Shown here in pieces: positions 18,801-35,154 of a stretch of 39,536 bases of DNA (the first letter of the stretch is position 1; each line of letters begins with the position of its first letter). The translations under genes and the position numbers were made by a program. Under the pieces are notes generated by a model. It had not been told where the DNA came from and did no database searches. It saw only the letters and a program-made list of their open reading frames with translations. This DNA is from Dimargaris cristalligena (lineage: Eukaryota), in the NCBI GenBank assembly GCA_003614675.1, contig ML002350.1:1-39536 (forward strand), read 5' to 3'.

Positions 18801-21800
18801 AGCGTCGTATTTATCCACAACCAGCAGCTAATCGCGTACGTTTTTCCCGAAACCGCAGCCGATGAAGACCGCCTACAAAACATTTTGAGTGATCACTTAC
18901 CAACCTATATGGTGCCTAGCTATATCTTAGGTCTTCCCCAGGTCCCATTGACCAGGAACGATAAATGTGATATCCAGTTCCTTCGAGCCCATTTCATTGA
19001 ACACTTTAATTCCCAGCAAAAAGGAACCCCAACGACACTCGACGCAAACAATATCGACCCATCACTGGAAACTCTGGCTAAGGCTTTGGTGGATGTCCTC
19101 AGTCTATCCCCCGAACAAGTTAACCTGGGCCTATCCTTTTTTAAGCTCGGCGGTGACTCCATCTCGGCAATTCAGGTATCGTCAAAGTGTCGCCAACTCG
19201 GACTAACCATACCTGCCTCGGCCTTCCTTGGTCGAGGAACTTTACTAGACGTGGTCAAATTAATGAAGCCGATTTCGTCAGCCTCGGATAGGGCATTGGC
19301 ACCGGTCAGTAATTTCACCGCCTTCCCGCTTACTCCCATCCAACAATGGTTCTTTGACCAACCTTGGACTAACATTCACCACTTTAACCAGTCGTTTGTC
19401 CTAGAGCTGACTCAACCACTGGGTATCAGCCGTCTCAATTCAGCACTACTTAGTCTCATCAACCACCATGACATGTTACGCTGTCGATTTATCCGAGATA
19501 GTGCCAGGCCAAACATCCCGTGGGAACAGGCCATTATACCACCATTTACCGAGTTGCCCATACCTACCGCTGAGGTCAAGGTGCCACAGGAAGGGCTTAC
19601 AACTTGCTTTTTAGATATTCAGTCGTCTCTGAATATATCCCAAGGCCACCACCTGGCTGCAGGCCTGATCGCATTAACTGATGGAACTAGTAGTTCGATA
19701 ATTACCAATGGTACGGCCAAAGGGTCGACCCCCACTACAACCACTCGGCTGCTGTTTCTCACTATCCACCATCTAGTCGTAGATTTGGTATCTTGGTCTG
19801 TTTTACTCGAAGACCTAGTGCTGCTACTAGAGGGTCGCCAGCCTATCCCACAACATCTGTCATTTGCAACCTGGGCTACTGAGCTGACTAACCGGTTCAA
19901 TCAATCCGCGGCTGCCGAAAAAGAAACCAAACTCTGGTCCACTGAGGCATTTCCTAAGCCCTTTTTACCCCGCGTGGACTCTGATTACTTGTCATTGAAT
20001 ATCCAAGGTAATGCTCAGCACCAGATGCTTACACTACATCCTGCCTTATCCAATTCTCTACTCCAAATTGGAAAGTGCCTTAGTCAGCCGTTGGAGATTA
20101 TGCTGGCTGCATTATTCCAATCCCTATTTCTGGTGACCCAAGAATCAATGATTACGGTATTCAATGAGTCACACGGTCGTCAGCTCCTACAACCATCTGC
20201 CGATACCAGCCGTATTGTGGGTTGGTTTACGGCCCTAGTACCCTGCTGTGCCCAAGTTGGTTCTAATACAACAATCGCCGACTACCTTAAACTGGCCAAA
20301 CGTGCACTCCACCCTTCCGCCCAGCTTGACTTGACTCAGTGGCCGTACAAGAAAATGGATCATACATCCCACATGTACACCCCCTGCCATCCCTTGGATC
20401 TGGTGTTTAATTACTTTGGGAAAATAGTTGACGATGATTGTCTCACTACTAATGGGAAAGCCCCATGGGTCCCTCGACTGGACCTGACCTCCACTCTGGC
20501 CAACTGTGATGCCTCTGAAACCCGCCCCCAATTACTGGAAATACTCGGTATTCAAACAGTAACAGGCCTCCAGTTTTCCTTTCAATACTGCCCACAGGTT
20601 ATATCGTCGTCTATAATCACCGATATTATGGTCCGGTTTGAGGAATCGATTCGCAGTATAATTGGACATATATCTCAATTCCCCGAAATGGCCTACTGGG
20701 TACCCCTGGACTTCCCCCTGCTAAAGGGAAGTCAGTCAGACCTTGCCAAGATTGAAAGTGAGCTCCATGAATTGAACATAGTGTCGGCCGAAGTTGAGGA
20801 CATCTACCCCATGCTGCCGACGCAGATAGGCTTACTGGCAACTACGGCGAAGGATTCGACCAAGTACCTGGCTCATTTGACCTTTACCATTGAGGGCCTG
20901 GTTACCCTGACTCAGCTAAAAACAGCGACAGGCTCGATAGTCGCTCTTCACCCTATTATGCGGACAAAATTCTTGACAAACTGGTACAACGATTTCAATA
21001 CTGGGGCTCAAGTGACCATGAAGCCCGGACATTTTGACTTGGATTTTATCAAAGAGTGGTCTGACGTTGGGGTGGCGAATGAAGCGGGATATCTCCAGAA
21101 AATTATGGATAAGGGTTTTAACCCTGGTAGCCCACCTATCCATTTTGGGTTAAAGCAGCTTAACAAAACCAAGTTCCGTTACTATGTGACAGCCCACCAT
21201 GCCTTACTGGACGGGTGGTCGGTAGCAATATTCCTGGACCAGTTACGCCATTATATCAGTACCCCGCAGATTGGACTAATGCCCAAAGCCACTTTCAAGA
21301 CTTATATCCAGTATATTCAAGAATTGGACCATTCCGCCGCCCTGGAATTCTGGAACGAGTACCTGGGCGGTGTAAAACAGCCTACTGAGCTGCAGCTTCC
21401 TAAGGCACAAGTTACCCCTGACATCCCAAACTCCGCCACCAACTGCGTACTTCACCCCCAAGCGAATCGAATTCAGAACCTGGCCCGGCTAATGAACACC
21501 ACTCCCTATACCTTCATCAAGGCGGCATGGGCGCTTTTACTCAGTCGGTACACCGACCAAACCGACGTGATTTTCGGCAACACGGTCTCTGGAAGGGCAC
21601 TTCCTTTAGAGGGCATCGAGGAGATCGTCGGATGTCTCATCAACACATTGCCCTTCCGGGTGCAGGTGGATCCCAATCAGACTGTTAGCCAGTATATCAA
21701 TCAAATTGGTGCTGATTCTCAGCATATTACACCCTACGAATACTGTCACTTGGCGGATATTGACACCAAGCTAGTGGGGTCAATCAGTGCCAAACATATG

Positions 21801-24800
21801 TTTAATACCCTGATTGTCTATGAGAATTATCCCAGTTCACGGCTTAAGAAGTATACGCAACAAGTTACATTCAGTGACATCGTGTCGGATGTGGCCACCG
21901 AATACCCACTATCGTTGATGTTTCAAATACAAAACAATGAATTAGTTGCTACATTCAGCTGGCATACCGCTGCATTTGACGCGCCCTGTGTTGGATCTCT
22001 AATCAAGCATTTCCACTCAATTTTTAAGGCTTTGGTGTCAAAGGTCGAAACCTCGGATATGGATAGTTTAATCGGGGAGATCCCTATGTTGTCTCCCTCT
22101 GAAGTTAAATTGTTAACCGATTCCTTTGCCAGGCCCCACAGGGATATTGATTTCCAAACCTGCATTCCTGGCCTATTTAGCAACATGGCTCACCAGACAC
22201 CCACAGAGGTTGCGGTAGAACATGCTGGTGTCAAATACACATACGCCGAATTGCACACACAGGTTATACTCGCAGCCCAAGTTTTCAATTCGTTAGGCAT
22301 TAAGCCGGAAGAACCGATTGGCATAATTATTGAGCGCCTTCCAAGTACGATTGTGGCAATGCTGGCTGTCCATTTCGCGGGGGCCGCCTTTGTCCCTATT
22401 GACCCGGAGTATCCTCTGGACCGCATAAAATATATTATCGGGGACTGCAGCATCCGGTATATGTTTTCCAATGCGAAGGACCTCACCAAAGCCCGCCAGG
22501 CTACCCAAGATTGTCATATTCGACTAATTTTCCAGGAAGACCTATTCGACATGACTCTCAAAGAGGTAGGGGAGCATTCCCGGCCACTGCCTTCCATCCG
22601 GCCTAACCATTTATCACATATTCTGTACACCTCGGGTACCACGGGTAAGCCGAAGGGGGTCCAAATGGAGCATCGAGTATTGGCCAACCTAGTGCAACAG
22701 AGCGACAACGTAATGGCAGTGACTAAAGGGTTGCGGGTTATGCAGAACATGGCACTCACCTTTGATGGTGCCCTTTACGAAATCATGGGTGCCCTATGCA
22801 ATGGAGCTACTCTGGTCTTACCCACAGAACTTCTGGAAACTCTATCCCAAGTGGACATCCTTACCGCAACTCCCACTATGCTCTCGTCGATTGACCCTAC
22901 CCACTACCCTAATATCCAGAAGGTTGTGGCGGGTGGGGAAGCATTTCCCCTCCAAGTAGCCGAGCGTTGGGCCCGCCACTGCCAAGTATATAACATGTAC
23001 GGACCAACCGAATGTATTGTCAGCCATACTGTCGAGTTCAAACTGGGAGATCAAATCACGATTGGTCACCCGATTCCCAACACGGAATGTTATATTCTTG
23101 ACCGCCATCTACGCCCCATGCCGATTGGTATCCCCGGCGAGCTCTATATAGGAGGTATCTGTGTCACTCGAGGCTATGTTAATCTACCCGAACTTAACGT
23201 GGAGCGCATTCTTCCTAATCCATTTACAGGCCAAGGTTATATCTACCGCACAGGTGACATTGGTCGTTGGCACTCTAATGGAACCATCGAATATATAGCT
23301 CGGCGGGATGATCAGCTTAAAGTTCGCGGCCACCGGGTTGAGCCCCAAGAGATCGAAGCCGTTTTGCTCAATTATTCGGGAGTCGAGAGTGCCGCCGCGG
23401 TTATGTCATCCGGCAAACTTCACGGATTTGTAAGTCCCAACTTGATTTCCATCCAAGACATCAAAGCCCATCTCTCAACACATCTTCCGCATTACATGAT
23501 TCCACATACCGTTTTTGCCCTCGACGCACTACCCCAAACTATCAACGGCAAAACCGACAAACGAGCGTTGATAAGTATGCTTCCGGAGCTAACGAATAAG
23601 TACACTACGCTGACTATTACAGCTCCGCAGAGCCCCGCACAGCTGCTCCTTGTGAATGCCCTTAGCCAGACGCTGAATGTCCCTGCTGTTGAGATTGTTC
23701 TCCACCATTCATTTTTCCAATTAGGGGGTGACTCGATTTCAGCCATTCGGTTGTCTTCTATATGCCGGGATAGTGGGCTACACCTATCGATGGCTCAAAT
23801 ATTTAAGAGTACGAATATTATACAGTTGGCCGAGTTCTCTTCCCAAGAGAATATGCCCGCCAACTCAACAAAAATCGATACTCGTAATATCTACCAGCCC
23901 TTTTCTCTTCTAGAACCGACTGAATCGCCTCATGCAACGGTGGACTCCTTAGTGAAAGAAGCGGCTTATCAGTTGAAACTTAATCCGGAAGACATTACGG
24001 ATATTATGCCAACGTCAAGCTTGCAGATAGGGTTTCTCATCAACACCCTCAAAGATCCGACCGCATATATGGTCCAGCAGTCGTACATGATTACAGGCCC
24101 CCTTGACGAAGCTCGCCTTCAACGTGCTTGGCATCAAGTGGCCAAGAGACACACGACTTTAAATACCAAATTTTTCCAACCCGGTTCGCTCTCAACCCAC
24201 AGTTTCTTACAAGTGATCACTCAAGCTTGTGACATTGAGTGGTCATTCAGCCCCAGTAGAACTTGCGATGACTGGGCCGAGTTGCAACAGGCTTACCTTG
24301 CTTCAGATCGTCGCCGCGGGTTCACCTTTGACGGGCCATTACTACGGTTGGCATTTTACAAATTATCTTCCACTGATGAACAGAAGCACGAGTGTCTATT
24401 TACTTTCCACCATGCCTTACTCGACGCTTGGTCCCAAAACCAAATCATGGCGGAGTGGTCTGAGCTATACCATGGTATTGCCCTGGCGCCCTGCACTCAA
24501 TTTACGGACTATATCGCTTATCTCCGGTCCCTTGACCAATCCGAAGTTCGTCAGTATTGGGAAGCTAATCTGGACGGGGCTTTGCCTACTCCAGCCATCC
24601 AGTTTCCCGTCTACGCCACGGCTCCTCAGGGCGAATTTGGTTTATATACCTCCAAACTGTCTATTGACTCGACTGCGCTGCAGAGTTTCTGTCGCAAATA
24701 CCATATAACTCTGAATTCCCTTTTACGGAGTGTATGGGCCCTTACACTGGCCCGCTATTTAGACCCATCCGGTGAAGTGACCTTTGGCGTACTTACTTCT

Positions 24801-27800
24801 GCTCGTAATGTACCTGTCCTGGGGATCCAAAATATGGTGGGTATGTGTATCAATACCCTGCCGTTCCGGGTCAGCGTCAATTTGGAAGCGTCAATAGTCG
24901 ATTTCATACAGTTAATTCACCGCCAGTCCGGGGAACTAACCACATCTGAACAATGCCACCTTGTAGATATCCGGAGGTGGGGTAAAGTTGACACAAACGC
25001 TAGGTTATTCGACACCCTCCTTATTTTCGATAGCTTCCCGGCCTCTCTACCTAGCGTCACTGATCCCCAAATAACATTCCACCCGCAGGAGGGACATAAT
25101 TTTACGGAATATGCCTACACAATGAACTTTACCAGCGCAGGCGATGCCCTAGAATGCCATCTATTATACAAGACCCACTACTGCAGCGAGCTGTATTCCC
25201 ATTTTCTCGTTCAGTTTCTAGACCACTGCTTACGTCACATCGTCAGTGAGTCCACTTCATTGTTACTCGACGTGATGACTCTTCCGACTGACGAGGCTCA
25301 GCTGATACACCAATGGTCTCGAGGGCCAATCCAGAAGTCTCCCCAGCAGCAATGGTCAGCCTGCCAACTGTTCACGAAACACCTTTCAAATCGAGCTAAT
25401 GCGATTGCCATTGAGACTGATCAACGAGTTTATACATACAGCGACCTATACCGAGGTGCCCGCGCTATCGCCCTGTCCCTCCAGCTCCAGGGCTTTCGCC
25501 CCGACTGTTTTGCCATTCTGCTATTCGATCAATCAACGGAATTCATTATCAGCTATCTGGCTGTGCTACTTGCCGGCGGTGTATGTGTACCCATGGACGC
25601 TTCCAATTCAATTGAGCGGTTACGCTACATGGCTGAGTTATTAGACGAGCCCTGGGCTTTGACTACCATTATCCACAAGGAAAAGGCTATACAACAATTA
25701 GTAATTAGCGACGACAGGCTTATTCTAGTCGATTCTGCCCAAATCCGTGATAGAGACTCGACCGGTTTCCAACCCGATATAACCCGCACACCATCTGATC
25801 TCATGTATATTCTGTTCACATCCGGTACTACAGGCCAGCCTAAAGGAGTGCCTATTCGGCATGAATCATTCACCAATTTTATTCTTTCGTTTACCGAGAC
25901 AACAGGGATTAGCGAAGCAACTCGCCAACTCTGGACCTTAAATCTTGCCTTTGACGGATGTCTCTGTGAAATTTTCGGTCCGCTTATCATGGGTGGTACT
26001 TTGATCGTTCCCAGTGGCCCAATGGTAGACTCCCTCCACCTTGCTAATACAAGTGTCCTGATTCCGTCCCTCTTATCCGCCATCAACCCCACGGATTTCC
26101 CTAATCTGACCAAAGTCATAACGGGCACGGATGTCCTACACCCGCAGGTTGCCCAAAAGTGGAGTCCACATGTGACCATGTACAACCTGTATGGGCCCAC
26201 CGAGACCACTATTGCCTGTCACATGGATATACTCGAACCCTGTCCAATACCGACAATCGGCAAGCCCCTGGCCAATATTCAGGGCTATATCCTGAATGAC
26301 CATTTACACTGCGTACCCGTGGGCGTGGCTGGTGAGCTGTATATCGGCGGCCAAGGTATCAGTAGCGGGTATTGGAAACAACCCGAGCTCACCGCCAAGG
26401 CGTTTATCCCCAACCCGTTCGACACCGGCAAGCTGTATCGCACGGGCGATATTGTCTGTTGGTTGCCAACCGGAAAGGTCCACTTTATCACTCGTAAGGA
26501 TTACCAGGTCAAACTGCGCGGTTACCGTATCGAATTAGGTGAAGTCGAAAATACCGCCCTACTGAACGAACAGGTTACTAATGCCACGGCATGTATAACG
26601 CAGAATCAGTTAGTACTATACGTCGCCCCCGGCCACATCAATACTCCGGCCCTTCAGACCCACCTGGCCGAAAAACTTCCCCATTATATGGTTCCCAGTT
26701 TCATTATCCCATTGGACCAGATGCCCTTGACCGCGGTGGGTAAGGTTGACCGCAAAACTCTCCAGGCAAAGTCCTTACCGGCGAATAACTTTTCCGAGCA
26801 TGCTTTGGACACCAAACCTTTGACCCCGACGTTCCTTCTTATGCGGAAGGCGCTGGTTGCCACCTTAAAGGTGGACCCACAGCATGTCGTACCCGCAACA
26901 TCGTTCCTTCAATTAGGTGGCGATTCTATTTCAGCCATCCAGTTTGCCACCAAATGTAAACAATTAGGACTCCGACTCTCGGTGGCCCACATTCTGAAAT
27001 ACCCCCAATTGTTCGTTATGGAGCAGTATGCCCAACTCATAGCCATAGATAAACAATACTCCCCCGCCAGTTACTTGGACTCTGTGGGCCCCGTTCCCTT
27101 CACTGCAGTCCAACGCTACGCGCTATCCCAACATAGAAATATCAATCAATTCAACCAATCCATGCTATTGCAGTGTCGCCAGACTTTGTCTCGTGACATG
27201 GTCAGGCAGGCCATGGTGGCGTTAATCTCCCACCACGATATGCTACGTGTCCAACTAACGCTTACTGGAAACCAATGGGAACAGCGGGTTCATTCGACTC
27301 CAGCCGAGCCGTCAGCCTGGACAGATCAGTATGTCGTGATTGACGAGGCCAACATAACCCGCGGCGAATATTTGGAGTGGGTCAACCATATGCAGAAAAC
27401 TATATCCATCGTCAACGGTCCTATCTTGGGCAGTGGTTTACTGACAATAGATGACGAACAGTACCTATTTCTAACGGTTCACCACTTTGCCGTTGATTTT
27501 GTTTCCTGGCGGATTATTCTGGAAGACTTGGAAGCCCTGCTAACCGGCCAGATCCTGTTGCCCAAGACGATGCCCTTCCGGGAATGGGCAACTAAGGTTC
27601 ACACCCATGCTCAGACGCTATCTGATTTGGACTGGCCCATCGCCACCCCTACCCATAGCGACCGGATTCCCCTGGATTTCCCAACTGCGACTGCTCAGTA
27701 CGAAGTGCCCAACGTGACCTATCACTCATTTCAATCAGTACAGGCATCATTAGGACCAGCCTTATCCGAATCACTATACAGTCAAGTTGCCCCTACACTG

Positions 27801-30800
27801 GGGACCTCGGTCCAGGAATTACTGGCTGCTTCTCTCCTGATGGCGCTAAATTCTAGTTTTGGCATTGCAACCATTGAACTGGAAATGGAAGGCCATGGCC
27901 GCAGACCCTGGGATCCGGTTATTGATATATCCCGTACCGTGGGATGGTTCACATCCATCTATCCTGTTAAGTTTAGTATCGATACCAGTGATGGCTACCC
28001 ACTCCCCAGTAAGGCTCTCCGGGTCCTCGCCCATACCAAACAAAGCCTCCGATCAGTTCCTAACCACGGGTTCCCCCATAGTCTAATCCAATATTTAAGG
28101 GACACGGATTCGCTCCAATGCAATGCACAAAATAGTCGGTTGCCTGGTTCGTACGATGAATCGAGCAACTGGAACCGAGTTGTATTTAATTATTCGGGTC
28201 GGTTTGAACAGCTGGGAGCCCAAGACGCTTTTTGGAAGTCCCGCTGCATTAACCAGGGCTGGAATTATGATTTCGATCAAGATGAGCTTATGACCCGAGT
28301 CTTTAGCGCTTCAGGCGACTTTGACATTGAACAGGGTCTAATTCTTAGTATTATGTACTCTGACGAGCTACATAAGTCAGAAACTATCCGCGGTCTAGTA
28401 GACCATTGGGTAATGTACCTAGGACAAATGGCGCACCAAGTTCAACAGGGCCCTTCCCCCAGCCTTATTACGGCTACCGACTTCCCCATATCTGGGTTAA
28501 GTGAGGTGGATTTTATTCAATTCCAAGCCGACGACCTGAAACATCTACAACTAACCATAGATCAGATTGAGGATATTTACCCTTGCTTGCCGGTCCAGGA
28601 AGGGCTCCTGTTTGCGACCCTCAAAGATCCGGCTGCTTACATGGTTCAGCTCTCAGTTCTTATTGAGGGTCCGTTAGATCCGACCCTGTTCCAGTGGGTC
28701 TGGGAGCAAACGGCTCAGAGCCAAGCGACATTCCGGACCCGGTTCCTCATGGGTACTAGTCAAAGGCCCGATCTAAACCTCCAGGTCGTGGCCACTAAGT
28801 TTGGGGCGCAATGGACTACTGGCGACTGGCAGGGCCAATCTATTGAGAAAGCTGAAGCTGAATTTACTTTACACGAGCGGGAGAAAGGTTTCCCTAGACA
28901 CCGGCCTATGATCAAATTTGGCTTATTCCAACTGGCCCCCCAGAAATATAAGTACATCGTGTCGGCCCACCATGCCATTCTCGACGGCTGGTCCATTGGC
29001 CTGATGACCCAAAGCATTTTTGGCTACTATAGCGGCAAGGTGCCCCCGCCCACCATTTCGTTTAAGGAGGTGGTTACCCACATCAAGTCCCAGAGTGTCG
29101 AAAAGGCCGCCAAATTTTGGAGTAATCAATTTGAAGGAGTAGAGTCCCCCAGTTTACTCGTACAGCCGCACCACAACCCAGATTTGAGTATCCAACCCAG
29201 TGATGCTGATTACTACGGACTGATTGATCGATCCGTTCCATTAATGTCCCACATCGAAGCCTTTGCCAGGGCAACCGATACCACCTTATCAGATGTACTC
29301 CGAGCGGGAATGGCGGCGGTTCTTCAGCGGTATACGGGCGCTGACAATCCTATATTTGGCGTAGTAGTATCGGGCCGCAATCTCCCACTAGACGGTATAG
29401 AAAATATGGTGGGCGTTTGTATTAATACCATTCCCTGCCGGGTCGCCCTCGGCCCTAGTGCTGCAATTGCTGATGTCCTTCAGAAGGTTCACCAAACTAG
29501 TATTGCCACCTATGGGTTCGAACACTGCCGGCTCACAGATATCCACCAGTGGAGTGGTTTGACTCAGGAACAACCTCTATTTAACTCCCTCTTGGTCCTT
29601 GAGAACTACCCCGAAGTGGAAATGGATGCCAATTTACCGATTCGCATTGAGTATACCGATTGGTATAATCCCACCGACCTCCCCTTTTCCTTAACGGTTC
29701 ATGCCGCTGGCAACCAACTTAATGTTACAGTTAACTACCAGCGCCTTTATTTCGACCACGATTTCATGACTCAATTCATTGACCATTTCCTCAACTCGCT
29801 CCAGTCGATCATTGCGCTAGGCCCAGATGCGCTCTTCAACACTATTGAGGTACTCTCTCCCGCCGAGCATAGCCAGCTGCTCAAGGTGTGGGCTACTAAC
29901 CCCCAAGAATGCCCTTCCCACTACGCCTACGAGGGTTTCCAATGGGAAGCGTTTTGCCACCCCGACCAAACTGCTCTAATTTACAACAACCGCCGCTTTA
30001 CCTATGCCCAACTTGACCAATCCACCAACTACTTGGCCCGTCAAATGCAAGCCATGGTGAACTGCCGATTCGACGGAATTATCGGCGTGGTGGCATCCAA
30101 CTCGCTAGAACTGATTGTAGGACAGTTGGCGGTTTGGAAAACGGGCTGTGCATTTGTAGTCCTGGACCCCGACTACCCCACCGAACGTAAACACTTTATA
30201 ATCCAGGACACGCAATGTCTTGCCCTGTTAGGCCAGTTAGAATATAAGGCAGAATTCAGTGAGCAAAAAATACCATTTATTCCCATAGACGCCGGCGATT
30301 TACTTTCTGGAATAGACAGCAAAGAATTATGTCACCAGGTCGAAATATCGTCGGAATCCCTAGCTTACGTTATATACACGTCAGGCTCCACGGGTAAACC
30401 CAAGGGGGTGCTCATTGAGCATGGCGCCGTTTCCAATCTCCTCCAAGGGGTCCAACTGGTGACCTGTATCACAGCCAGCACCATCACGCCTACAATATTC
30501 ACGCCCACCTTTGACATTTCCATTTCGGAAATTTGGAATACGCTATCCTTTGGTGGTGCGGTCCTAGTTACCCATGGTGACTATGAAGCTGCCCTGAAAC
30601 AGTCAACTCGGGCCTGCTGTACTCCCTCCCTTCTCGCCCTTTTTGAACCATCGGATTTCCCCAATCTAAACCAGGTGATGCTTGGCGGCGAAGGTGTAGG
30701 TCAGAAGGTAGTGGACCGCTGGGCCCCTGTCCTGGAACTGATTAATATATATGGTCCGACGGAGGCCACCATTACCTCCCACACCGCCCCCTTAGTGGCC

Positions 30801-32927
30801 TACCAGACGATAACCATCGGGACACCCCTACCTAACTACGTAGGTATAATTCTGGATCAGTATTTACGACCCGTGCCCATCGGAGCCACCGGCTACCTCT
30901 ATCTCGGAGGTCGTGGTGTAGCCCGGGGCTATCTTAACCGGTCTGATTTGACCTCGGCCAAATTCACTACCTGTCCCTTTACTGGAGGAAGAATCTACCA
31001 AACGGGTGACTTAGCCCGCTGGCTAACCAATGGCCATATTGAGTGCCTGGGCCGTATAGATAACCAGGTGAAGGTGCGGGGATTCCGAATTGAATTGGGT
31101 GAGGTGGAGAGTGCCCTAGAGCGCCACCCCAGCGTTGAGAAAGCCTGCGCGGCCGTTCAAAGCGGCCACCTCATAAGTTTCATTACGGGCCATCCCCCAT
31201 TCAGCCCGGACGCCATTCTCGCTTCACTTCGAACCATTCTGCCTAATTACATGGTGCCGTCGGTCTTGGTTCCAATAGACCAGCTCCCACTCACCCGTGT
31301 TGGTAAACTCGACCGGCTGGCCCTCCCGAAATACGACTTCGGGGAATCAGTTGCTAGGAGCGCCCGCGTTACGCAATCGCCCCTGGAAAACCAACTATGT
31401 CGACTCATTGGCGAGACGCTCCAAATGGACCCTGATTCCATTGCCCCCCATAACACGTTTTACCAACTGGGTGGAAATTCCCTATCGGCCATCCAACTGC
31501 TATCTCGTTGCCGCCGTACAAAGTTATTTTTGGCCCTGGCCGATATTAACCGACATAACACGGTGGCCGACCTGGCATTACTTATGGCCTCCGCCCCTTC
31601 AAAACCAGGCGTTGAGATTATCAAAAACGAGCCGGCTAAAGAAATAAGGCAGAGTCAACTTTCCCCCTCGCAGAGAATTCTTATGCAGATGCAGTTGAAG
31701 AACCCCCACTATTTCCCAGTAGCTGCTCTATTTGAATCCAAGCAGTCATTTTCGATTGAATCATGGCAAATGGCGTGGACCCAGGTGGTGCAGAGACATG
31801 ATATGTTAAGGGCCCGGTTTACCCCAGACGCCAATGGCCAATTGGTCAGTAGTACTGAACCAGGTCAAAACCTGCTGGTCTTTGAAGAAATACCCCAGCT
31901 GGATCAGTTAATTCGTCGCCTGCCCTCGATTAACCGCCAGCTTAACTTTGAAACAGGACCAATTGCCCAAGCACATATATTCCAAGTAGAGAAAACCCAG
32001 TACCTTTACCTCAGTGTACATCACTTAGTCTTCGACTACCTTTCCAGCCAAATCGTGGTGGAAGATCTCGACGCTCTGCTTACTGGGCGGGCCTTGGAAC
32101 CCCCCACTGCCTCTTTCTACTCCTGGGTTAACCATCTGTACCAAACCGTCCAACCTACTATTTTGCCCTGCGCCAAAGCCCTTTCGCATATCCCAGAACT
32201 TCCTTTTGACTGGCCCGTCGAAGGCCAGATCATTGACAACCAGACTCGTGTTCAAGAATCGGCCATTTTGGATAGCACCACCGTCCACATCCTGTTAACA
32301 AACACAACCTTGTCCCTACAAGCCACTGCCTTGGAACTCATCCTTACGGCCCTGATTCGGGCCTATGGTCTCTCCTTTGACCTATTTGATATGGATCTAA
32401 TGTTTAATGGACATGGCCGAGATGACCCCATGGGTTTTATCGACGTGTCTCGGACCGTTGGTTTCTTTGTTTCCTATATTCCGGTCATTCTGCGGACCAC
32501 TGGGCAATCCAAGCCACTGGATACCCTCCGCCTCGTTCAGGCCGCTCTAACTGAGCAGCTGGCCAATGTTACAGGGGTATCTTTCGCCCAAATTGATAGG
32601 TCCCAGTCCGATTCAATGGTGAAGTCCGAGCCACCTGCCATCCCGCAATTTTCCTTCACTTACTTGGGTATAACCACGCCACCGACAGCTTTGCCATCTA
32701 CTACCCCCAAACTACTGACCGAGAGGTCTGATCTAATTAGTGGACTGCGCTCGCTTCAAAGCGAAAATATGTATCCCTACAAGTTTGACTTGGCAGCCCT
32801 TCATGTTGGGGACGCGCTTGAACTGGGAGCAGCGTTTAATTCGCGCCACTTTGACCCGACTCGTGTGCGTCTCTTCGCCGAAAATTGGAAGCAAGAGGTT
32901 ATCATTCTGATGGACTTGGTGAAATAG
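9045..32927 (+). CDS. Giant intronless multimodular nonribosomal peptide synthetase, 7960 aa, six modules (one degenerate)
   Basis: Five A domains with (Y/F)TSG(T/S)TGxPKG at 10365, 18024, 22626, 25815 and 30375, each with NxYGPTE. PCP motifs GGDSI at 11478, 19149, 23724, 26916 and GGNSL at 31470. C motifs HHxxxD(G/A)WS at 13500, 21195, 24408 and 28968. E motifs HHxxVD plus (E/N)xHGR and RxVG(W/F)F. An in-frame TAA at 9018-9020 closes the ORF upstream. Confidence 0.98.
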   Translation: MISATGCDHSNFALPRTEPIPHATGLPLQKPNIPVGGYGAYSIKTPLIAAGPNNIVWSLGDSIRALKVILAVLMSRVHHNPFVAFGVLHASKSGLDSRGILDWSSPCRDYSITRFSIHVEPGIPISLLFASIQPASNTTCVVSSSLKSSCELPIDLSTPRDFAKVTLSLRTSQLGNHSAKKGSVEDDPVYAGLMDQNVIDLLIDCVLQDNFILATLVYRRTSYSPLAIQEFASPFVTLFQSIFQDYCPAASHDTGSPLVRDLAWLEEQERMRLIEFSGMNKPMEDSERSVGEIFVDCARQYPDHTAVIHGGDEWTYHQLDRCSSELAYILVNQYGAKPESRFAIIISKSVYFIVALLAMFKSGAAYVPIDPEYPDDRIRFILDDCDASLILTTLANYDCFTTELSLPYFQIDSVVNKQPQTTTAPFFIQSTDLRALAYILYTSGTTGRPKGVLIQQGGVANVATEPHLREAYGPGNRVIQFMSVSFDGILIDTLRTLCAGGTVIIPTLDIIGDLRTVHAGLLMPSFISRLDPHDFPQFRVVFAGGEFFPPELQTRWASHCTLVNIYGPTETTIYSHLTVIHPEDHVSIGRPIRNTFSLVVDEQLQLVPVGVTGELLIGGVGIARGYQNLPELTAAKFIPNPHGPGRVFRTGDHVRWLSDGRIEFIGRMDNLVKLRGYRIELEEIESVANRFPGLNHCVAAVVHDTLVIFVSPVNVDSNALLEYMSNRLARQMVPELVVPVKDFKTAPSGKLDRKALPSVDHLLHPGPSPSLNNTQTLTLKSEAEQVLGRAWAQLLQVDINQICASDHFFRVGGDSISAILLVSKCQQLGYHLTVPLVYQYPELHKMADHTAKISKAKDSVTIAYQTQVHGEVNLTPIQHWFLGLPLHNHHHFNQSFMLKVNSQSNVTQSSLTGALVALINHHDTLRVRFQLDGSKRVWTQEISATNAVSTDFQIVEETVGIVDYPSLILQIQSGLNLTTGPVLAAALIHDPVDSSSTRLFLTIHHALVDLVGWRILIEDLNTLLGQKELPPKTLSFQAWATQLNDYATALSADIWPQQVDPATPISNIRKLLPPPEISVSDTQIARLSVSFEFDWDFTNSLLFQLAPQWHVTPRDLLLATFTQSFATVVGLSQVTLCMEGHGREPWSPDQDITRTVGWFTALYPLVLRIQPGQSLYDLLRHTKEALQQIPGKGFPYALLKYMPSVRPEERAKLEAKTPVQLDVQFNYFGRFTNTNGDYSDGPLSIEWSDLFGLHDFAPNDHVIYDINPMPTLVGDQLRLVLEYNPRVYHRDIIAQIMNGWQRNLVELNDMARHSQSIVAEPLFTRYDFPHLQLSETEFSEILGTLNSRGISLNQVRDLLPCIAVQGGLLTGLEVNPSAYLVQMAFKLTGPLDSKRLLQAWESVANQHSPLRTVFIESSAKQSQGFVQALLHPFSTNWTTGEKPIDSLDLFFADNHKYGFTLNAHMIRNFIFPTADRLVHDIVLTIHHSLIDGWSLPLLLQQWMDTYHHPQLLAPLLLTSFDAVVSHIQTIDSTSAQEFWSDFLGNFSKTPAPLILPPGYSSFGFDALTTDLNVPKVAMANRAQLLGVTLSTLLQATYALVLGRLIGQDDVVFGMTVSGRNLNLSGMDQVIGPLINTVPFRVRLDQPSVSTCLKSIYQNQVNMIPFEHTILTDITRWVTYGEPSPLFNTSLGFENFPDIKTNSYHQLSISDIRIHEFTEYPLTVNFIDQPSGIQVKVFYNTAMYSNSAIQQLVNMLQTVLEQILNADHEVSIDQISLSPVSASLSSTPRYSNSTGATITTGSLIPDLNNGSFKNDPNLSVYISRNLTLSYGQLNQLTNLLSCQTTQETVPDSITIVALLETPDQLLVCLNTAVKLEAQLLPLDLDSPIGYLVEFIELVGANVVWLPTAMLELFSPYLPMGVRVVCLPNPSSSPNSTLPSLHQYQPSVAPQGLTLLLASGWKFASPIITSVSDSALLHTLSSTHPHVSGQGQYIGFPSLALDCSQAIWLVLSGLRLGLTMVVPDSPKLTKVKSALCHIIIADLLPSSPNGVKKLILCDLGQITWLDTDHLANTSQPCLAYNGNIFMGHSFVASGQLGTRKLPSFCNPPEHASLAILDGHGQSCPLGVIGQLAFINPLGFTIPKSNETSVLGYWDKPGIVSIIGSHHQRVTVQGRQVHLGLVEEVLNQFGLRSPRALLLHGDQLVALVPNTSEQDLVHLSYKIASSTIPSAFVPHVVIPTDAFPHVAESTEHCPKSFAQAYLAALPLRSSQILSDTEWWLTVVVNEIYSSLQQLPSGSPDTAPVWSTAGFPLSKLELVQFLVLEKYGVGLTLGDLVKYGDIKLLADVISSQLDTQTFNISDKVATNDHGIFNAEPHSRNYVYHQPISSFQQSIWSFGRLEHIPRIFYHQATIVSTFPLAFTTVRQVMAKTVAQHDSLRSAFLCRRGTVGSYILPSVPLNIKDHRDRTLVSGALQGSASEQELEEPEFNLSAGILVQVDFFQASEIKKGGVQTSIVIRIHEIAGDAVFYQGLVNGLVSILSSESRDLLQHPTSQSTNNIVRSRVRAGSLPSATAPEPMPRKSNTPQTVGSIPITPVLPLDYNRPLLPTFQNGMVQAQTSTKLAVAVKKMAQEIDCDVGDLWLTLFAAFLLQIAIPGEVSVETRVSQTPYRLDHPHAFDTHLNHTLIQVDKKSSNSIHGLAALIAGQKGATYTLSGQPPIPAEKQYGIWAQAGVYPRSQLGFQYQAPGPHSFTSNLMIHNDVPLNTVFVHDIVCFIAKGADLFECSVRFNMDVYLEDTISRMLHNFLYFSYQAIQLGSNLNNVPLVCEREERVLLQDFAKVCESTSPTKQSTPSVLDSFHQAAQNYSNQTAIDVLGTTLTYSSLLSRIDIVAELLQQTNVGVGDVVGVTVSNHPNTVIAMLAVWKIGAIYVPVDAKLPKNRQNLIIEEANCVAILNTTKSLAEGPSVTSTHAMNLPISQGASATSNNGTLSDNLAYIVFTSGTTGKPKGVMVTHHSLNHIINNPEFHDFQKPYQRVLVGVAPGFDVFFLNTLLPLCHGSTLVFYGEDITKTLATVDQVFLVPSVLRILSPTDYPNLQQIYLAGEPVSRDLADRWLATATVTIYNGYGPTETAIISHMTKIPPTGPVPIGRPVTGYECYILNPNLRLVPIGAVGEIYIGGIGVSKGYINRIDLNPIKFIDNHFTGKGKLYRTNDLGRWLTNGQVEYLGRIGSQVKLRGFRIELEEIRSVLIGQSGVHDSVVFIHNQQLIAYVFPETAADEDRLQNILSDHLPTYMVPSYILGLPQVPLTRNDKCDIQFLRAHFIEHFNSQQKGTPTTLDANNIDPSLETLAKALVDVLSLSPEQVNLGLSFFKLGGDSISAIQVSSKCRQLGLTIPASAFLGRGTLLDVVKLMKPISSASDRALAPVSNFTAFPLTPIQQWFFDQPWTNIHHFNQSFVLELTQPLGISRLNSALLSLINHHDMLRCRFIRDSARPNIPWEQAIIPPFTELPIPTAEVKVPQEGLTTCFLDIQSSLNISQGHHLAAGLIALTDGTSSSIITNGTAKGSTPTTTTRLLFLTIHHLVVDLVSWSVLLEDLVLLLEGRQPIPQHLSFATWATELTNRFNQSAAAEKETKLWSTEAFPKPFLPRVDSDYLSLNIQGNAQHQMLTLHPALSNSLLQIGKCLSQPLEIMLAALFQSLFLVTQESMITVFNESHGRQLLQPSADTSRIVGWFTALVPCCAQVGSNTTIADYLKLAKRALHPSAQLDLTQWPYKKMDHTSHMYTPCHPLDLVFNYFGKIVDDDCLTTNGKAPWVPRLDLTSTLANCDASETRPQLLEILGIQTVTGLQFSFQYCPQVISSSIITDIMVRFEESIRSIIGHISQFPEMAYWVPLDFPLLKGSQSDLAKIESELHELNIVSAEVEDIYPMLPTQIGLLATTAKDSTKYLAHLTFTIEGLVTLTQLKTATGSIVALHPIMRTKFLTNWYNDFNTGAQVTMKPGHFDLDFIKEWSDVGVANEAGYLQKIMDKGFNPGSPPIHFGLKQLNKTKFRYYVTAHHALLDGWSVAIFLDQLRHYISTPQIGLMPKATFKTYIQYIQELDHSAALEFWNEYLGGVKQPTELQLPKAQVTPDIPNSATNCVLHPQANRIQNLARLMNTTPYTFIKAAWALLLSRYTDQTDVIFGNTVSGRALPLEGIEEIVGCLINTLPFRVQVDPNQTVSQYINQIGADSQHITPYEYCHLADIDTKLVGSISAKHMFNTLIVYENYPSSRLKKYTQQVTFSDIVSDVATEYPLSLMFQIQNNELVATFSWHTAAFDAPCVGSLIKHFHSIFKALVSKVETSDMDSLIGEIPMLSPSEVKLLTDSFARPHRDIDFQTCIPGLFSNMAHQTPTEVAVEHAGVKYTYAELHTQVILAAQVFNSLGIKPEEPIGIIIERLPSTIVAMLAVHFAGAAFVPIDPEYPLDRIKYIIGDCSIRYMFSNAKDLTKARQATQDCHIRLIFQEDLFDMTLKEVGEHSRPLPSIRPNHLSHILYTSGTTGKPKGVQMEHRVLANLVQQSDNVMAVTKGLRVMQNMALTFDGALYEIMGALCNGATLVLPTELLETLSQVDILTATPTMLSSIDPTHYPNIQKVVAGGEAFPLQVAERWARHCQVYNMYGPTECIVSHTVEFKLGDQITIGHPIPNTECYILDRHLRPMPIGIPGELYIGGICVTRGYVNLPELNVERILPNPFTGQGYIYRTGDIGRWHSNGTIEYIARRDDQLKVRGHRVEPQEIEAVLLNYSGVESAAAVMSSGKLHGFVSPNLISIQDIKAHLSTHLPHYMIPHTVFALDALPQTINGKTDKRALISMLPELTNKYTTLTITAPQSPAQLLLVNALSQTLNVPAVEIVLHHSFFQLGGDSISAIRLSSICRDSGLHLSMAQIFKSTNIIQLAEFSSQENMPANSTKIDTRNIYQPFSLLEPTESPHATVDSLVKEAAYQLKLNPEDITDIMPTSSLQIGFLINTLKDPTAYMVQQSYMITGPLDEARLQRAWHQVAKRHTTLNTKFFQPGSLSTHSFLQVITQACDIEWSFSPSRTCDDWAELQQAYLASDRRRGFTFDGPLLRLAFYKLSSTDEQKHECLFTFHHALLDAWSQNQIMAEWSELYHGIALAPCTQFTDYIAYLRSLDQSEVRQYWEANLDGALPTPAIQFPVYATAPQGEFGLYTSKLSIDSTALQSFCRKYHITLNSLLRSVWALTLARYLDPSGEVTFGVLTSARNVPVLGIQNMVGMCINTLPFRVSVNLEASIVDFIQLIHRQSGELTTSEQCHLVDIRRWGKVDTNARLFDTLLIFDSFPASLPSVTDPQITFHPQEGHNFTEYAYTMNFTSAGDALECHLLYKTHYCSELYSHFLVQFLDHCLRHIVSESTSLLLDVMTLPTDEAQLIHQWSRGPIQKSPQQQWSACQLFTKHLSNRANAIAIETDQRVYTYSDLYRGARAIALSLQLQGFRPDCFAILLFDQSTEFIISYLAVLLAGGVCVPMDASNSIERLRYMAELLDEPWALTTIIHKEKAIQQLVISDDRLILVDSAQIRDRDSTGFQPDITRTPSDLMYILFTSGTTGQPKGVPIRHESFTNFILSFTETTGISEATRQLWTLNLAFDGCLCEIFGPLIMGGTLIVPSGPMVDSLHLANTSVLIPSLLSAINPTDFPNLTKVITGTDVLHPQVAQKWSPHVTMYNLYGPTETTIACHMDILEPCPIPTIGKPLANIQGYILNDHLHCVPVGVAGELYIGGQGISSGYWKQPELTAKAFIPNPFDTGKLYRTGDIVCWLPTGKVHFITRKDYQVKLRGYRIELGEVENTALLNEQVTNATACITQNQLVLYVAPGHINTPALQTHLAEKLPHYMVPSFIIPLDQMPLTAVGKVDRKTLQAKSLPANNFSEHALDTKPLTPTFLLMRKALVATLKVDPQHVVPATSFLQLGGDSISAIQFATKCKQLGLRLSVAHILKYPQLFVMEQYAQLIAIDKQYSPASYLDSVGPVPFTAVQRYALSQHRNINQFNQSMLLQCRQTLSRDMVRQAMVALISHHDMLRVQLTLTGNQWEQRVHSTPAEPSAWTDQYVVIDEANITRGEYLEWVNHMQKTISIVNGPILGSGLLTIDDEQYLFLTVHHFAVDFVSWRIILEDLEALLTGQILLPKTMPFREWATKVHTHAQTLSDLDWPIATPTHSDRIPLDFPTATAQYEVPNVTYHSFQSVQASLGPALSESLYSQVAPTLGTSVQELLAASLLMALNSSFGIATIELEMEGHGRRPWDPVIDISRTVGWFTSIYPVKFSIDTSDGYPLPSKALRVLAHTKQSLRSVPNHGFPHSLIQYLRDTDSLQCNAQNSRLPGSYDESSNWNRVVFNYSGRFEQLGAQDAFWKSRCINQGWNYDFDQDELMTRVFSASGDFDIEQGLILSIMYSDELHKSETIRGLVDHWVMYLGQMAHQVQQGPSPSLITATDFPISGLSEVDFIQFQADDLKHLQLTIDQIEDIYPCLPVQEGLLFATLKDPAAYMVQLSVLIEGPLDPTLFQWVWEQTAQSQATFRTRFLMGTSQRPDLNLQVVATKFGAQWTTGDWQGQSIEKAEAEFTLHEREKGFPRHRPMIKFGLFQLAPQKYKYIVSAHHAILDGWSIGLMTQSIFGYYSGKVPPPTISFKEVVTHIKSQSVEKAAKFWSNQFEGVESPSLLVQPHHNPDLSIQPSDADYYGLIDRSVPLMSHIEAFARATDTTLSDVLRAGMAAVLQRYTGADNPIFGVVVSGRNLPLDGIENMVGVCINTIPCRVALGPSAAIADVLQKVHQTSIATYGFEHCRLTDIHQWSGLTQEQPLFNSLLVLENYPEVEMDANLPIRIEYTDWYNPTDLPFSLTVHAAGNQLNVTVNYQRLYFDHDFMTQFIDHFLNSLQSIIALGPDALFNTIEVLSPAEHSQLLKVWATNPQECPSHYAYEGFQWEAFCHPDQTALIYNNRRFTYAQLDQSTNYLARQMQAMVNCRFDGIIGVVASNSLELIVGQLAVWKTGCAFVVLDPDYPTERKHFIIQDTQCLALLGQLEYKAEFSEQKIPFIPIDAGDLLSGIDSKELCHQVEISSESLAYVIYTSGSTGKPKGVLIEHGAVSNLLQGVQLVTCITASTITPTIFTPTFDISISEIWNTLSFGGAVLVTHGDYEAALKQSTRACCTPSLLALFEPSDFPNLNQVMLGGEGVGQKVVDRWAPVLELINIYGPTEATITSHTAPLVAYQTITIGTPLPNYVGIILDQYLRPVPIGATGYLYLGGRGVARGYLNRSDLTSAKFTTCPFTGGRIYQTGDLARWLTNGHIECLGRIDNQVKVRGFRIELGEVESALERHPSVEKACAAVQSGHLISFITGHPPFSPDAILASLRTILPNYMVPSVLVPIDQLPLTRVGKLDRLALPKYDFGESVARSARVTQSPLENQLCRLIGETLQMDPDSIAPHNTFYQLGGNSLSAIQLLSRCRRTKLFLALADINRHNTVADLALLMASAPSKPGVEIIKNEPAKEIRQSQLSPSQRILMQMQLKNPHYFPVAALFESKQSFSIESWQMAWTQVVQRHDMLRARFTPDANGQLVSSTEPGQNLLVFEEIPQLDQLIRRLPSINRQLNFETGPIAQAHIFQVEKTQYLYLSVHHLVFDYLSSQIVVEDLDALLTGRALEPPTASFYSWVNHLYQTVQPTILPCAKALSHIPELPFDWPVEGQIIDNQTRVQESAILDSTTVHILLTNTTLSLQATALELILTALIRAYGLSFDLFDMDLMFNGHGRDDPMGFIDVSRTVGFFVSYIPVILRTTGQSKPLDTLRLVQAALTEQLANVTGVSFAQIDRSQSDSMVKSEPPAIPQFSFTYLGITTPPTALPSTTPKLLTERSDLISGLRSLQSENMYPYKFDLAALHVGDALELGAAFNSRHFDPTRVRLFAENWKQEVIILMDLVK
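9909..12960 (+). other. NRPS module 1: A-T-E
   Basis: YTSGTTGRPKG (10365), SFDGIL, FRTGD, GKLDRKAL (11289), GGDSI (11478), HHALVD (12054), EGHGRE (12459), DITRTVGWFT. Confidence 0.92.
13110..17470 (+). other. NRPS module 2: intact C followed by a degenerate A*-T*-C* block
   Basis: C motif HHSLIDGWS (13500) is intact. The A-like region 14480-15770 keeps only traces (LSYGQLN, CPLGVIGQL, QRVTVQGRQVHLGLVE) and lacks TSGxTGxPKG, YGPTE and the A10 Lys. The T-like region reads WSTAGFPLS (AGFPLS at 15957) in place of FFxxGGxS. The next C reads HEIAGDA (16590) in place of HHxxxDG. Confidence 0.85.
17590..20670 (+). other. NRPS module 3: A-T-E
   Basis: FTSGTTGKPKG (18024), NGYGPTE, GGDSI (19149), HHLVVD (19767), ESHGR (20166), DTSRIVGWFT. 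Confidence 0.9.
20800..23850 (+). other. NRPS module 4: C-A-T (no E)
   Basis: HHALLDGWS (21195), YTSGTTGKPKG (22626), YRTGD, NGKTD, GGDSI (23724). Confidence 0.92.
23990..28430 (+). other. NRPS module 5: C-A-T-E
   Basis: HHALLDAWS (24408), FTSGTTGQPKG (25815), GGDSI (26916), HHFAVD (27480), EGHGRR (27888), DISRTVGWFT. Confidence 0.92.
28570..32924 (+). other. NRPS module 6: C-A-T plus terminal epimerase-like domain
   Basis: HHAILDGWS (28968), YTSGSTGKPKG (30375), GGNSL (31470), HHLVFD (32019), NGHGRD (32406), DVSRTVGFF. No thioesterase or reductase domain follows. Confidence 0.9.
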
Positions 32928-33016
32928 AATAGAGTTGTAGCTGGTGGAAGGCCTATAGCCAAGCATTACATAGTACTGCCCTACTCAATTGTTTAATATA
33001 ATTTTTAAGATTAGTT

Positions 33017-33022
33017 AATAAA
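33017..33022 (+). terminator. Candidate polyadenylation signal for the NRPS
   Basis: AATAAA in an AT-rich tract 90 nt after the stop codon. Confidence 0.4.
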
Positions 33023-34825
33023 AGTGTTTGGCATAATTATGGGAACTGTAGTGCATATCCGCCTGGATGAGAAACGGTAAAGGCCATTCAAACAAGTACC
33101 AGTAAGGCTGGAGGAGAGGTAATCAACACGGCTTTTATTCAAAAAAGCCCCAATTGGACGTCATGGCGTCTATACCTATCGAACGAGGCCCTAAATTATT
33201 TATTTAGGTATGTCGGCCGGGGGAAAGCTGGCCAGCGCCAGTTAATAAAGATAAAAGGTATGGCTCAGGTTCGATGCCCGTGGATCCGCGGAATAATAAA
33301 ATGCCAAGCTGAGAGTAATGTAATGAACTATACGGCCATCCTTTATGTCTACATCTGGCCATGCAATTACCAGAGGCACAACCTGTCTGCCCGTCTCCCC
33401 AATATTAATGTTTGTATATCCCCTCACTCTTCCACACCGCCTGATTCGCTGACTGGATAGGTACAGGCAACCTGTTTCCTTCCCCCGTAGCAGGAAGTTA
33501 ATAAGACCATAAATGGTGCCATTAGTTGACGAAGTAATGCTAGCGATGTAGATATCGAAGTCTGTTCATTCAAAATACGCCGCCGGCCATGTAGGGGTAG
33601 TTGGGTAGGATGGTCTTGTAATGTTTTTAATTGTCGTACATCAATCACTATACTGGCCTCTACTCAACAGTATTATTGACAAGTACTAGCTGCGACTTCA
33701 AGCAGGTGCAATTCATAGAAGAGATACTCGCAGCGGATGGCTTGAAAATTCGGGCTTTCGAACCATCGCTGTCTGATGGATGTTGGCGCGCAACATAGAA
33801 CCAGCGAATCTACTGGACAATACGTCGAGGTTAATAGCTAAAGCAAACGTATATCAAACAGGCCACCCTTGTCCACTGCAGCCCATGGTCAAGCAAATAA
33901 AGCCAAAGTAGACCCTACCCAGCCATGAGGACTGCCTCTGGCAATAGAAAGCACTTACTTTCGGTGGGCAACTCTCTGGCATATTTTTGTGAATGCCATT
34001 ATTTTTTGAATCCTCCATACAGTTGGTTTTGCCAGAGTAGCAATACCTACCGTAAGTGGAATGATTTGCGCCAATATTGCCCAATTCTGACATCTAAGCT
34101 AAGGATCTAATGGTTAGTTTGCTCTACCCATTATCACTACCTCTCTTGAACCCCGAGAGATCCGCCCTCGTCCCCCTTGCTACACTATGTTATTTCCAAT
34201 GAATCGTTTATGAGCTGCACCATGATGTAACGATCCGTGTCCACCCCACACGCGAATGTATGGGCCTGTGCTTATCCTATGACCCTCTCTCTTTCATTTA
34301 ACAACCACCCAATGGCTGGAGGCCCTGCCCCCCATCCGTCGAGCCATTTGTTCTTGATTGGGTGGCATATCAAATGTAAAGAAGGATTGTCGTTGTCGTA
34401 AATGGCTGACCTGGGGAGGCTTTTGAAATTCGGTTTATATTTCCCTGCCGAACAGTACTGGCCAGGGACATGCCTTCTCACCAGGTGACTATGCATGATC
34501 AATTTTAGACGGGCTTACATGCTTTATCATTGCCATCTTCCTTCAGATAGTGGGGCCCTTCTTATTTGGTTTCGGATTGGTTTGGCCAATGCAATCCCCG
34601 AAATTTAATATCGCTCACCGACTGGCCGGAGATGAAATTTAGACAGGGTGTGCTTTCTTAGTGAATAGAGGAGGGGGCCAGATCCCCAAAGATGCAAGCC
34701 GCTTGGATGCGAGGGAGATTCAATACTTGCCAATAATGGAAGGCACTGCCTTTTTGGGAATTGATGTTTACCCTCATTCGGATATGATTAAGGTGATACA
34801 GCACTGAAAAGGAGGTTATCTTAGC

Positions 34826-34831: not shown

Positions 34832-35154
34832 GCCCTCCTCGGTTTATTACGCTCTCCAAGTTAGTTGCTTCTGTTTACTTCTTTAGTCTTCTTCATTACC
34901 TCTCGTTGTGGTGCATTTGCCAACGCACATGCTTGTAGTTTGCTACGTGGGCATTCCCTCAGGATCGTTATTCCGGCCCTTCTCCTAAAACTCGGTGTAT
35001 ATATTACCTTGTGGACCTACGCCGCAACCTCTAGAGCCATACTGGCCCTTGATTCCGTGAGTCGGCTACAGCTACCTAACCGAACTATACCCAATACCAT
35101 TGAAACCCAGAGTCCAACCATATATTCAAGTTCATTCACCCCTAGTTCTACCGC

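Follow-up and report, generated by a model that had tools for sequence, protein, structure and literature searches.

The 39.5-kb stretch of Dimargaris cristalligena DNA analysed here (contig ML002350.1; hereafter the window) carries a large gene for a nonribosomal peptide synthetase (NRPS), whose last domain, at the very C-terminus, is our subject. The gene is a single uninterrupted open reading frame (ORF) specifying adenylation (A), carrier (T), condensation (C) and epimerisation (E) domains (Table 1). The Pfam content of the protein, taken over both halves and the last 550 amino acids (aa), consists of Condensation, AMP-binding, AMP-binding_C and PP-binding only; a preliminary description of this DNA had seen neither a thioesterase (TE) nor a reductase (R) domain, and this search found no family of either kind. 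Motif mapping located HHxxxD at eight places, A-domain core motifs at aa 442, 2995, 4529, 5592 and 7112, and carrier motifs at aa 812, 3369, 4894 and 5958 (all GGDSI) and at aa 7476 (GGNSL; nt 31470). The GGNSL carrier had been called unique, and it is the sole deviant among the five recognisable T motifs of the protein; the uniqueness is limited to these five, because the protein also has, in a fossil module, a degenerate sixth stretch that resembles a carrier (GFPLSK, aa 2306). As had also been reported, all three internal E domains keep the Glu of the EGHGRE motif (as EGHGRE, ESHGR and EGHGRR).

Table 1. Features of the NRPS gene and of its terminal T-E region (window positions).
Feature	Position	Strand	Remarks
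NRPS gene	9045..32927	+	7960 aa; A-T-E / C-A(dead)-T(degenerate)-C(dead) / A-T-E / C-A-T / C-A-T-E / C-A-T-E(terminal, E-derived)
Internal E domain 1	11565..12944	+	EGHGRE at aa 1139; canonical comparison
Internal E domain 2	19263..20636	+	ESHGR at aa 3708
Internal E domain 3	27003..28235	+	EGHGRR at aa 6282
Last adenylation domain	29691..31289	+	partial pocket signature DISLII
Terminal carrier (T) domain	31371..31592	+	Ser motif GGNSL at 31470..31484
Terminal E-derived domain	31575..32924	+	450 aa
HHLVFD (HHxxxD)	32019..32036	+	aa 7659
NGHGRD in place of EGHGRE	32406..32423	+	aa 7788; Asn codon AAT 32406..32408
DVSRTVGFF	32442..32468	+	aa 7800; canonical D.SRTVGWF, Phe for Trp
Stop codon TAG	32925..32927	+	sequence read; without further NRPS exon downstream

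In the terminal domain the motifs HHLVFD, NGHGRD and DVSRTVGFF were all found where the preliminary description had placed them, and at the remaining E signatures the protein reads DYLSSQ (DxxSW site), GFFV (GWFT site) and FTYLG (FNYLG site). The DNA around the Asn codon is cta atg ttt AAT gga cat ggc cga gat gac; conversion of AAT to GAA or GAG takes two base changes, so the Asn does not result from a single-base error. The C-terminus is genuine, since homologues share it: residue 445 of the 450 aligns with residue 7377 of the 7380 of P0003, another D. cristalligena protein, and the homologues from this species end at the same alignment position. The domain reaches the end of the E fold without an extra tail, residues up to 450/450 of its predicted model being aligned. 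A TE or R exon downstream was considered and ruled out by the shortness of the ORFs and the lack of Pfam families after the stop codon: from 32928 to 35154 no stop-to-stop ORF exceeds 131 aa (the longest are 129 to 131 aa), and no Pfam family was found in the three that were scanned, at 33071..33460, 33242..33565 and 34865..35260. The scan of the flanks covered the window, that is 9 kb upstream and 6.6 kb downstream of the NRPS; among its 17 ORFs Pfam disclosed no second NRPS, TE, hydrolase or beta-lactamase- or penicillin-binding protein (PBP)-like gene, although intron-split genes could escape such a search. A downstream partner NRPS, which had been raised as an objection to assigning the domain a release function, is thus not detected within the window.

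The terminal domain resembles E domains both in sequence and in predicted structure. Its phmmer matches in the PDB are headed by the E domain of PvdL (3.3e-26), bacitracin synthetase 3 (7.9e-23), TycA (1.3e-18) and GrsA (5.2e-17), with TycB (2.5e-12) and LgrA (2.5e-7) further down; the top five protein families are all E domains, and the Asn of NGHGRD aligns with the first Glu of PvdL EGHGRE. An AlphaFold2 model was built on an 18-row alignment, for the deepening of which alone we used the only 10 homologues, all bacterial fragments, returned by a search with the 450-aa domain restricted to near-equal length; its mean predicted local distance difference test score is 79.8 and its predicted template-modelling (TM) score 0.80. 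Foldseek matched this model best with TycA E (2xhg; 1.3e-30, TM 0.81), and the top 13 rows listed are E domains, those of GrsA, TycB3, PvdL, bacitracin synthetase and LgrA also being among the leaders, with C domains coming after. With VIA-align the top 11 rows are again all E domains (Z 32.3 to 38.1; 406 to 416 residues aligned at a root-mean-square deviation of 2.6 to 2.9 A), and the first C-type domain follows at Z 31.9. Structures of terminal C (CT) domains of the TqaA type are not among the 50 rows listed by either program, which carries no weight as evidence. All four E-type domains of the NRPS match the NCBIfam profile NF004282 over one and the same E region (profile 2781 to 3218), the terminal domain scoring lowest (95.9 bits vs 115.8 to 208.2 for the internal three); TIGR01720, tried as a criterion of membership, was uninformative, all four falling below its cutoff. 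By sequence, by the trees presented below and by predicted fold, then, the terminal domain is a descendant of E domains.

The closest proteins all come from the Dimargaritales (Kickxellomycotina), an order of haustorial parasites of other moulds: from Dimargaris cristalligena, D. xerosporica, D. verticillata, Tieghemiomyces parasiticus, Dispira simplex and D. parvispora. When the domains of the window NRPS were used as queries to derive the architectures of these relatives, 24 of 25 Dimargaritales NRPS proteins, the window's included, proved to end in an E-type domain, uninterrupted in every case; in 23 this domain finds its best match in the terminal domain of the window, that of P0010 being closer to internal E domains. 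The exception, P0068, ends in T and is flagged as partial by its source. The precomputed Pfam lists of the 25 proteins contain no TE, R or terminal C domain. Among the long proteins with A as first detected domain 12/14 start A-T-E, and P0005 and P0264 start A-T-C.

The absence of the Glu from the terminal domain goes beyond what chance would give. We surveyed 1817 C/E-type regions in 263 proteins, 705 of which scored as E-type, and aligned the 643 longer than 330 aa; the 62 shorter ones left out include the six Dispira terminal domains. Glu is kept in 555/560 internal and in 71/83 terminal domains, most of the latter 71 belonging to proteins with bacterial source names; the 12 terminal domains without it are the window's, 10 more from Dimargaritales and one from a Halanaerobiales metagenome-assembled genome (MAG). 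In a more careful alignment, Dispira included, Glu is absent from 22 of the 24 Dimargaritales terminal domains, only P0010 and P0021 keeping it. The loss is therefore no private defect of one protein, and the possibility, raised beforehand, that the homologues all keep Glu is removed. What does not hold is the idea of a conserved E-to-N switch: the loss is family-wide, but the site is variable, being occupied in Glu-less clade members by N, L, V, S, Q, T, A, M or I.

The preliminary description had proposed that a C/E phylogeny would show whether the domain belongs with E or with CT domains. A FastTree tree was made of 102 C/E-type domains: 24 terminal, 16 Dimargaritales internal E, 20 other fungal E, 27 bacterial E (a random sample), 5 ascomycete terminal C and 10 internal C. 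The 24 Dimargaritales terminal domains form one clade (support 100), which lies on the E side among the Dimargaritales internal E clades, the E/C split itself having support 100. In an IQ-TREE analysis of 59 rows, 14 terminal domains among them (LG+C20 with posterior mean site frequencies, short search), the terminal clade received 99 in the Shimodaira-Hasegawa-like approximate likelihood-ratio test and the E/C split 100. Ascomycete terminal C domains group with C domains in the trees, and forcing them (5) into one clade with the 14 terminal domains was rejected by the approximately unbiased (AU) test (log-likelihood difference 153, p-AU 8.6e-8); the grouping tested had been proposed beforehand, yet the FastTree topology was known before the test was run. 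On these alignments the domain is of E origin, independent of ascomycete CT domains and tied to them no more closely than by membership of the superfamily. Within the terminal clade P0004, with Q at the Glu site, branches first; the next level, comprising P0010 plus P0021 (Glu kept), Dispira, and Dimargaris-plus-window with Tieghemiomyces groups, is not resolved. The Glu state requires four changes over the whole tree, two of the changes lying, by our reading, outside the clade, in one bacterial row and one degenerate internal domain.

Three observations from the survey concern individual proteins. The Halanaerobiales MAG protein (P0241, 4036 aa), which has the only Glu-less terminal E-type domain in the sample from outside Dimargaritales, reads LHGHGRE, with His at the site, and this domain sits on a long branch inside bacterial E domains. 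An ascomycete NRPS, from Fusarium lateritium (P0007, 7814 aa), also ends T(GGDSI)-E without a release domain; its Glu is intact (ESHGR), and in the tree the terminal E falls with the internal E domains of the same protein, outside the Dimargaritales clade. In Dispira proteins P0016, P0020, P0027, P0034, P0086 and P0122 similarity to the terminal domain of the window fades about 100 residues before the protein end, and the same six are gapped at the motif equivalent to FNYLG; the C-terminal subdomain may have been remodelled further in Dispira.

Comparison of 17 non-redundant terminal domains with 58 non-redundant canonical E domains revealed a consistent pattern of retention, loss and gain. 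Both His and the Asp of HHxxxD are invariant (17/17, and 24/24 in the full clade), as are HGR, four residues (D, T, G and F) of the E5 motif D.SRTVG.F, and W7694, R7589 and G7638. The second His is missing where C/E-type domains of these same proteins are truly dead, for example in HEIAGDA at aa 2516 of the window NRPS and in HRLVID, internal, in P0021. Glu of EGHGRE is present in 97% of canonical E domains vs 2/17 non-redundant terminal ones, Trp of DxxSW in 98% vs 0/24 of the terminal clade, Trp of GWF in 100% vs 3/24 (18 have Phe, 3 Tyr) and Asn of FNYLG in 90% vs 1/24; the Thr that follows GWF (98%) is replaced by Ala or Val, the Trp at window position 7710 (98%) is variable, and the Trp of TPIQxWF, present in canonical E domains, is lost. 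Residues gained specifically by the clade are Y7653 (100%), W7574 (94%; canonical Leu), Q7832 (88%; Lys in 81% of canonical domains) and V at 7645. The preceding carrier differs as well: T before the terminal domain has GGNSL in 17, GGNSI in 4 and GGDSL in 2 cases (GGNS[L/I] in 21/23), whereas T before an internal E has GGDSI in 28/28; before C, the counts are GGDSI 24, GGDSL 6 and GGNSL 1.

Rates of divergence are uneven. Between the window NRPS and P0003 the terminal domains are 39% identical vs 43 to 65% for collinear domain pairs (the one lower value, 32% for the C domain at aa 6486, comes from a match to a non-collinear C domain); identity to the P0005 terminal domain is 38%, and between P0008 and P0264 it is 36% vs 59 to 67% for neighbouring domains. 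Close paralogues show 89% (P0016/P0020), 74% (P0003/P0005) and 68% (P0027/P0034), values similar to or somewhat below those of neighbouring domains. These identities, which do not separate relaxation from adaptation, would fit a functional domain under looser or shifting constraint.

The reading we favour, at a probability of about 0.45, is that the terminal domain is an E-derived offloading domain, probably a cyclase. On the scale of the order, and at the same somewhat less than even odds, an E domain would have been turned in Dimargaritales into the release domain, macrocyclising or hydrolysing, of a whole NRPS expansion of tens of genes per genome, complete with a dedicated GGNS[L/I] carrier and independently of ascomycete CT domains; it would be the first release catalyst of the E lineage. 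The domain would have become the fixed C-terminal partner of the specialised carrier in the ancestor of the expansion. The peptidyl-phosphopantetheine arm of the last T would enter the donor-side tunnel, as in an E domain, and the second His of HHxxxD would serve as general base, its target being a nucleophile and no longer the C-alpha proton. Most likely this nucleophile would be the chain's own N-terminal amine, with a head-to-tail cyclic peptide as the result, or else water; its attack would cleave the thioester and release the product. Epimerase-specific residues—the Glu of EGHGRE, the Trp of DxxSW, the Asn of FNYLG—would be dispensable for this chemistry and hence would have drifted.

As one module of the NRPS is degenerate (see below), five intact A domains remain and a pentapeptide is therefore predicted, in which modules 1, 3 and 5 contribute D residues and the C-terminal residue is L. 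A D N-terminus is expected because nearly all family members start A-T-E. In head-to-tail macrolactamisation the two ends that are joined are as a rule of opposite chirality, and the pair coupled by TE domains is D at the N-terminus and L at the C-terminus (PMC11735501); a D N-terminus together with this rule would fit a non-epimerising terminal domain with L at the C-terminus.

Set beside canonical E domains (TycA, GrsA, TycB3, PvdL E2, BacC), the terminal domain is alike in sequence, fold, nesting in the E clade, HHxxxD, HGR and RTVG.F core, but is without three of their residues (Glu in EGHGRE, Trp in DxxSW, Asn in FNYLG), has GFF for GWF, and always stands at the very C-terminus behind a GGNS[L/I] instead of a GGDSI carrier. 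Fungal CT domains release their products by intramolecular amide formation (PMC10510592; PMC2823734). Like those of the TqaA and cyclosporin synthetase type, the Dimargaritales domain is a C-superfamily member, C-terminal, directly after the last T of an NRPS without TE or R; it keeps the catalytic His and would take a single carrier-bound substrate. Unlike them it lies outside the CT clade, as the AU test indicates, and has HHxxxD where CT domains have SHxxxDx (PMC10510592). It sits in the place of a fungal CT domain, on an E scaffold, yet lacks the catalytic features that define E.

Several considerations weigh against the offloading reading. We know of no E-lineage domain that catalyses release. 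Nor did the literature that we found contain an E-derived release domain or an account of the terminal domains, products or release mechanism of Dimargaritales NRPSs, which the accessible parts of PMC6784888 and PMC9866270 do not describe; Supplementary Fig. 7 and Table 6 of PMC6784888 may show architectures. The acid/base pair of E domains consists of the second His of HHxxxD and the Glu of EGHGRE (TycA H743/E882, GrsA H753/E892), and GrsA E892A is only about 6-fold down in epimerisation, H753A being dead (PMC8905534). As the E892A enzyme is still active, loss of Glu alone does not mean loss of epimerisation. The inference first drawn, that His kept with Glu lost fits an E domain converted to release, is partly supported: E derivation, independence of CT domains and the non-private nature of the loss stand, and release or cyclisation remains a proposed activity. 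The Glu is, moreover, only one of several lost E signatures, and the variability of its site suggests that constraint was released and not that a new catalytic residue arose; such variability would fit relaxed constraint as well as neofunctionalisation. The terminal domain is the fastest-evolving of the protein, and the earliest branches of its clade are near-canonical: P0004 keeps GWFT and FNYLGR, P0010 and P0021 keep Glu. Finally, a trans-acting release enzyme may be encoded elsewhere in the genome, outside the 39.5-kb window that was scanned.

Some of these points serve equally the view that the domain is an inactive scaffold, a non-catalytic cap or docking platform of the last module, with release carried out by an unlinked trans enzyme or occurring spontaneously. 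We consider this unlikely, though it deserves serious attention. The domain's rapid evolution, the variability at the Glu site, the graded erosion of E signatures along the clade and the lack of detectable similarity over the last ~100 aa of the Dispira members are what would be expected of it, and there are precedents in the inactive terminal E of LgrA and in the glycopeptide X domains that recruit P450s (PMC10510592). These resemble the Dimargaritales domain in that the E/C fold is kept after the original chemistry is lost, that of LgrA being terminal as well; the domain studied here, however, keeps an invariant HHxxxD and ends a whole pathway, where the others hand the chain onward or recruit a known partner (LgrA E and X being compared by description only; PMC10510592). 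Invariance of HHxxxD in 24/24 members at 30 to 40% overall identity, while degenerate domains of the same proteins have lost the second His, is difficult to square with an inert cap, as are the conserved positions peculiar to the clade and its co-varying carrier motif; and the ORFs scanned in the window include no candidate trans enzyme.

Alternatively the domain could still be an epimerase: the last residue would be inverted by His, acting singly or jointly with another base, and the D-ended chain released by a separate, SurE-like enzyme. The retention of His, HGR and the E fold, the Glu of 2/24 clade members and the modest effect of GrsA E892A (PMC8905534) speak for this, and a bacterial precedent for terminal E with trans cyclase is available (PMC11735501). 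The SurE, WolJ and Ulm16 systems share with the Dimargaritales NRPSs a T-E end without a cis release domain; in those bacterial systems a PBP-type TE acts in trans, the C-terminal residue has to be D and is supplied by an intact E, and the chain begins with L (PMC11735501). PBP-type TEs couple N-terminal L with C-terminal D (PMC11735501), but in Dimargaritales module 1 has E in 12/14 long proteins, Glu is lost, and no beta-lactamase- or PBP-like gene was detected among the window ORFs scanned. Since, in addition, most members have lost Glu together with the DxxSW Trp and the FNY Asn, and the carrier has moved off the GGDSI that 28/28 carriers use before internal E, we judge continued epimerisation to be quite improbable.

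Termination in E is in itself common: 71/83 sampled terminal E-type domains are canonical, Glu-bearing ends, mostly from bacterial-named sources, and in bacteria such a layout normally serves transfer in trans. That the Dimargaritales domain likewise passes the chain on to another NRPS, encoded elsewhere and beginning with a C domain, strikes us as very improbable, given that no second NRPS was detected in the window, that every C-starting Dimargaritales protein examined was flagged partial by its source, and that nothing follows the E fold in the protein. Self-release, with the last residue cyclising through its own side chain, is scarcely credible: the 21 terminal A domains show 13 different pocket signatures (DVSIIW, DAGLVE, DSLTFT, DVASYV, DAAVVC, DGKVRV and DISLII among them; six motif-anchored positions only, with the numbering we assume for them, from which no substrate is predicted) and the commonest type is also found in mid-chain modules, so that no single special last residue defines the family.

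Other features of the gene and its surroundings may be recorded briefly. The degenerate, fossil module occupies aa ~1790-2850, between the first C and the second intact A domain (14415..17423 covers ~1790-2790): its A domain has shrunk to a ~115-aa fragment, the Ser of its carrier-like stretch is apparently kept, according to a hand alignment, and in its C-type remnant the motif HHxxxDG has become HEIAGDA. The window NRPS is collinear with P0003, this degenerate stretch included. Ahead of the first A domain lie some 200 residues (aa 1-202; 9045..9650) with no Pfam family; P0003 has a similar N-terminal extension, its A domain beginning at aa 183. The sole Pfam matches among flanking ORFs are to F-box and FUSC/ALMT. 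The former (5.7e-5) is in a 108-aa frame at 5045..5371 (-), upstream of a 413-aa open frame without family at 3457..4698 (-), and the two may be exons of one F-box protein gene. The latter is in P0002 (35155..39534, +), a serine- and proline-rich membrane protein of more than 1460 aa that has long poly-Ser tracts and runs off the window, with FUSC/ALMT-type matches near aa 1258-1351; it could export the peptide, but nothing connects it with the NRPS. Positions 1..2000 are AT-rich (GC 33.5% vs 42 to 55% elsewhere) and contain only short open frames.

The Dimargaritales possess the largest NRPS repertoires among early-diverging fungi: 25 to 89 genes in each species are NRPS or NRPS-like (PMC9866270), and D. 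cristalligena has 27 NRPS genes (PMC6784888). Judged from sequence comparison, the family-wide, Glu-less terminal E-type domain found here would constitute a variant of the C-superfamily terminal domains of fungal NRPSs and a candidate release catalyst. If it is a release domain, it explains the offloading of the whole Dimargaritales NRPS family; E domains, and not only C domains, could then evolve into offloading catalysts, and the clade would offer a graded natural series from near-canonical to fully remodelled, with P0004 followed by P0010 and P0021 and then the rest, as well as a compact cyclase candidate with matching carrier for the engineering of peptide macrocyclisation. Should the domain turn out to be inert, the family would still pose an unsolved problem of release.

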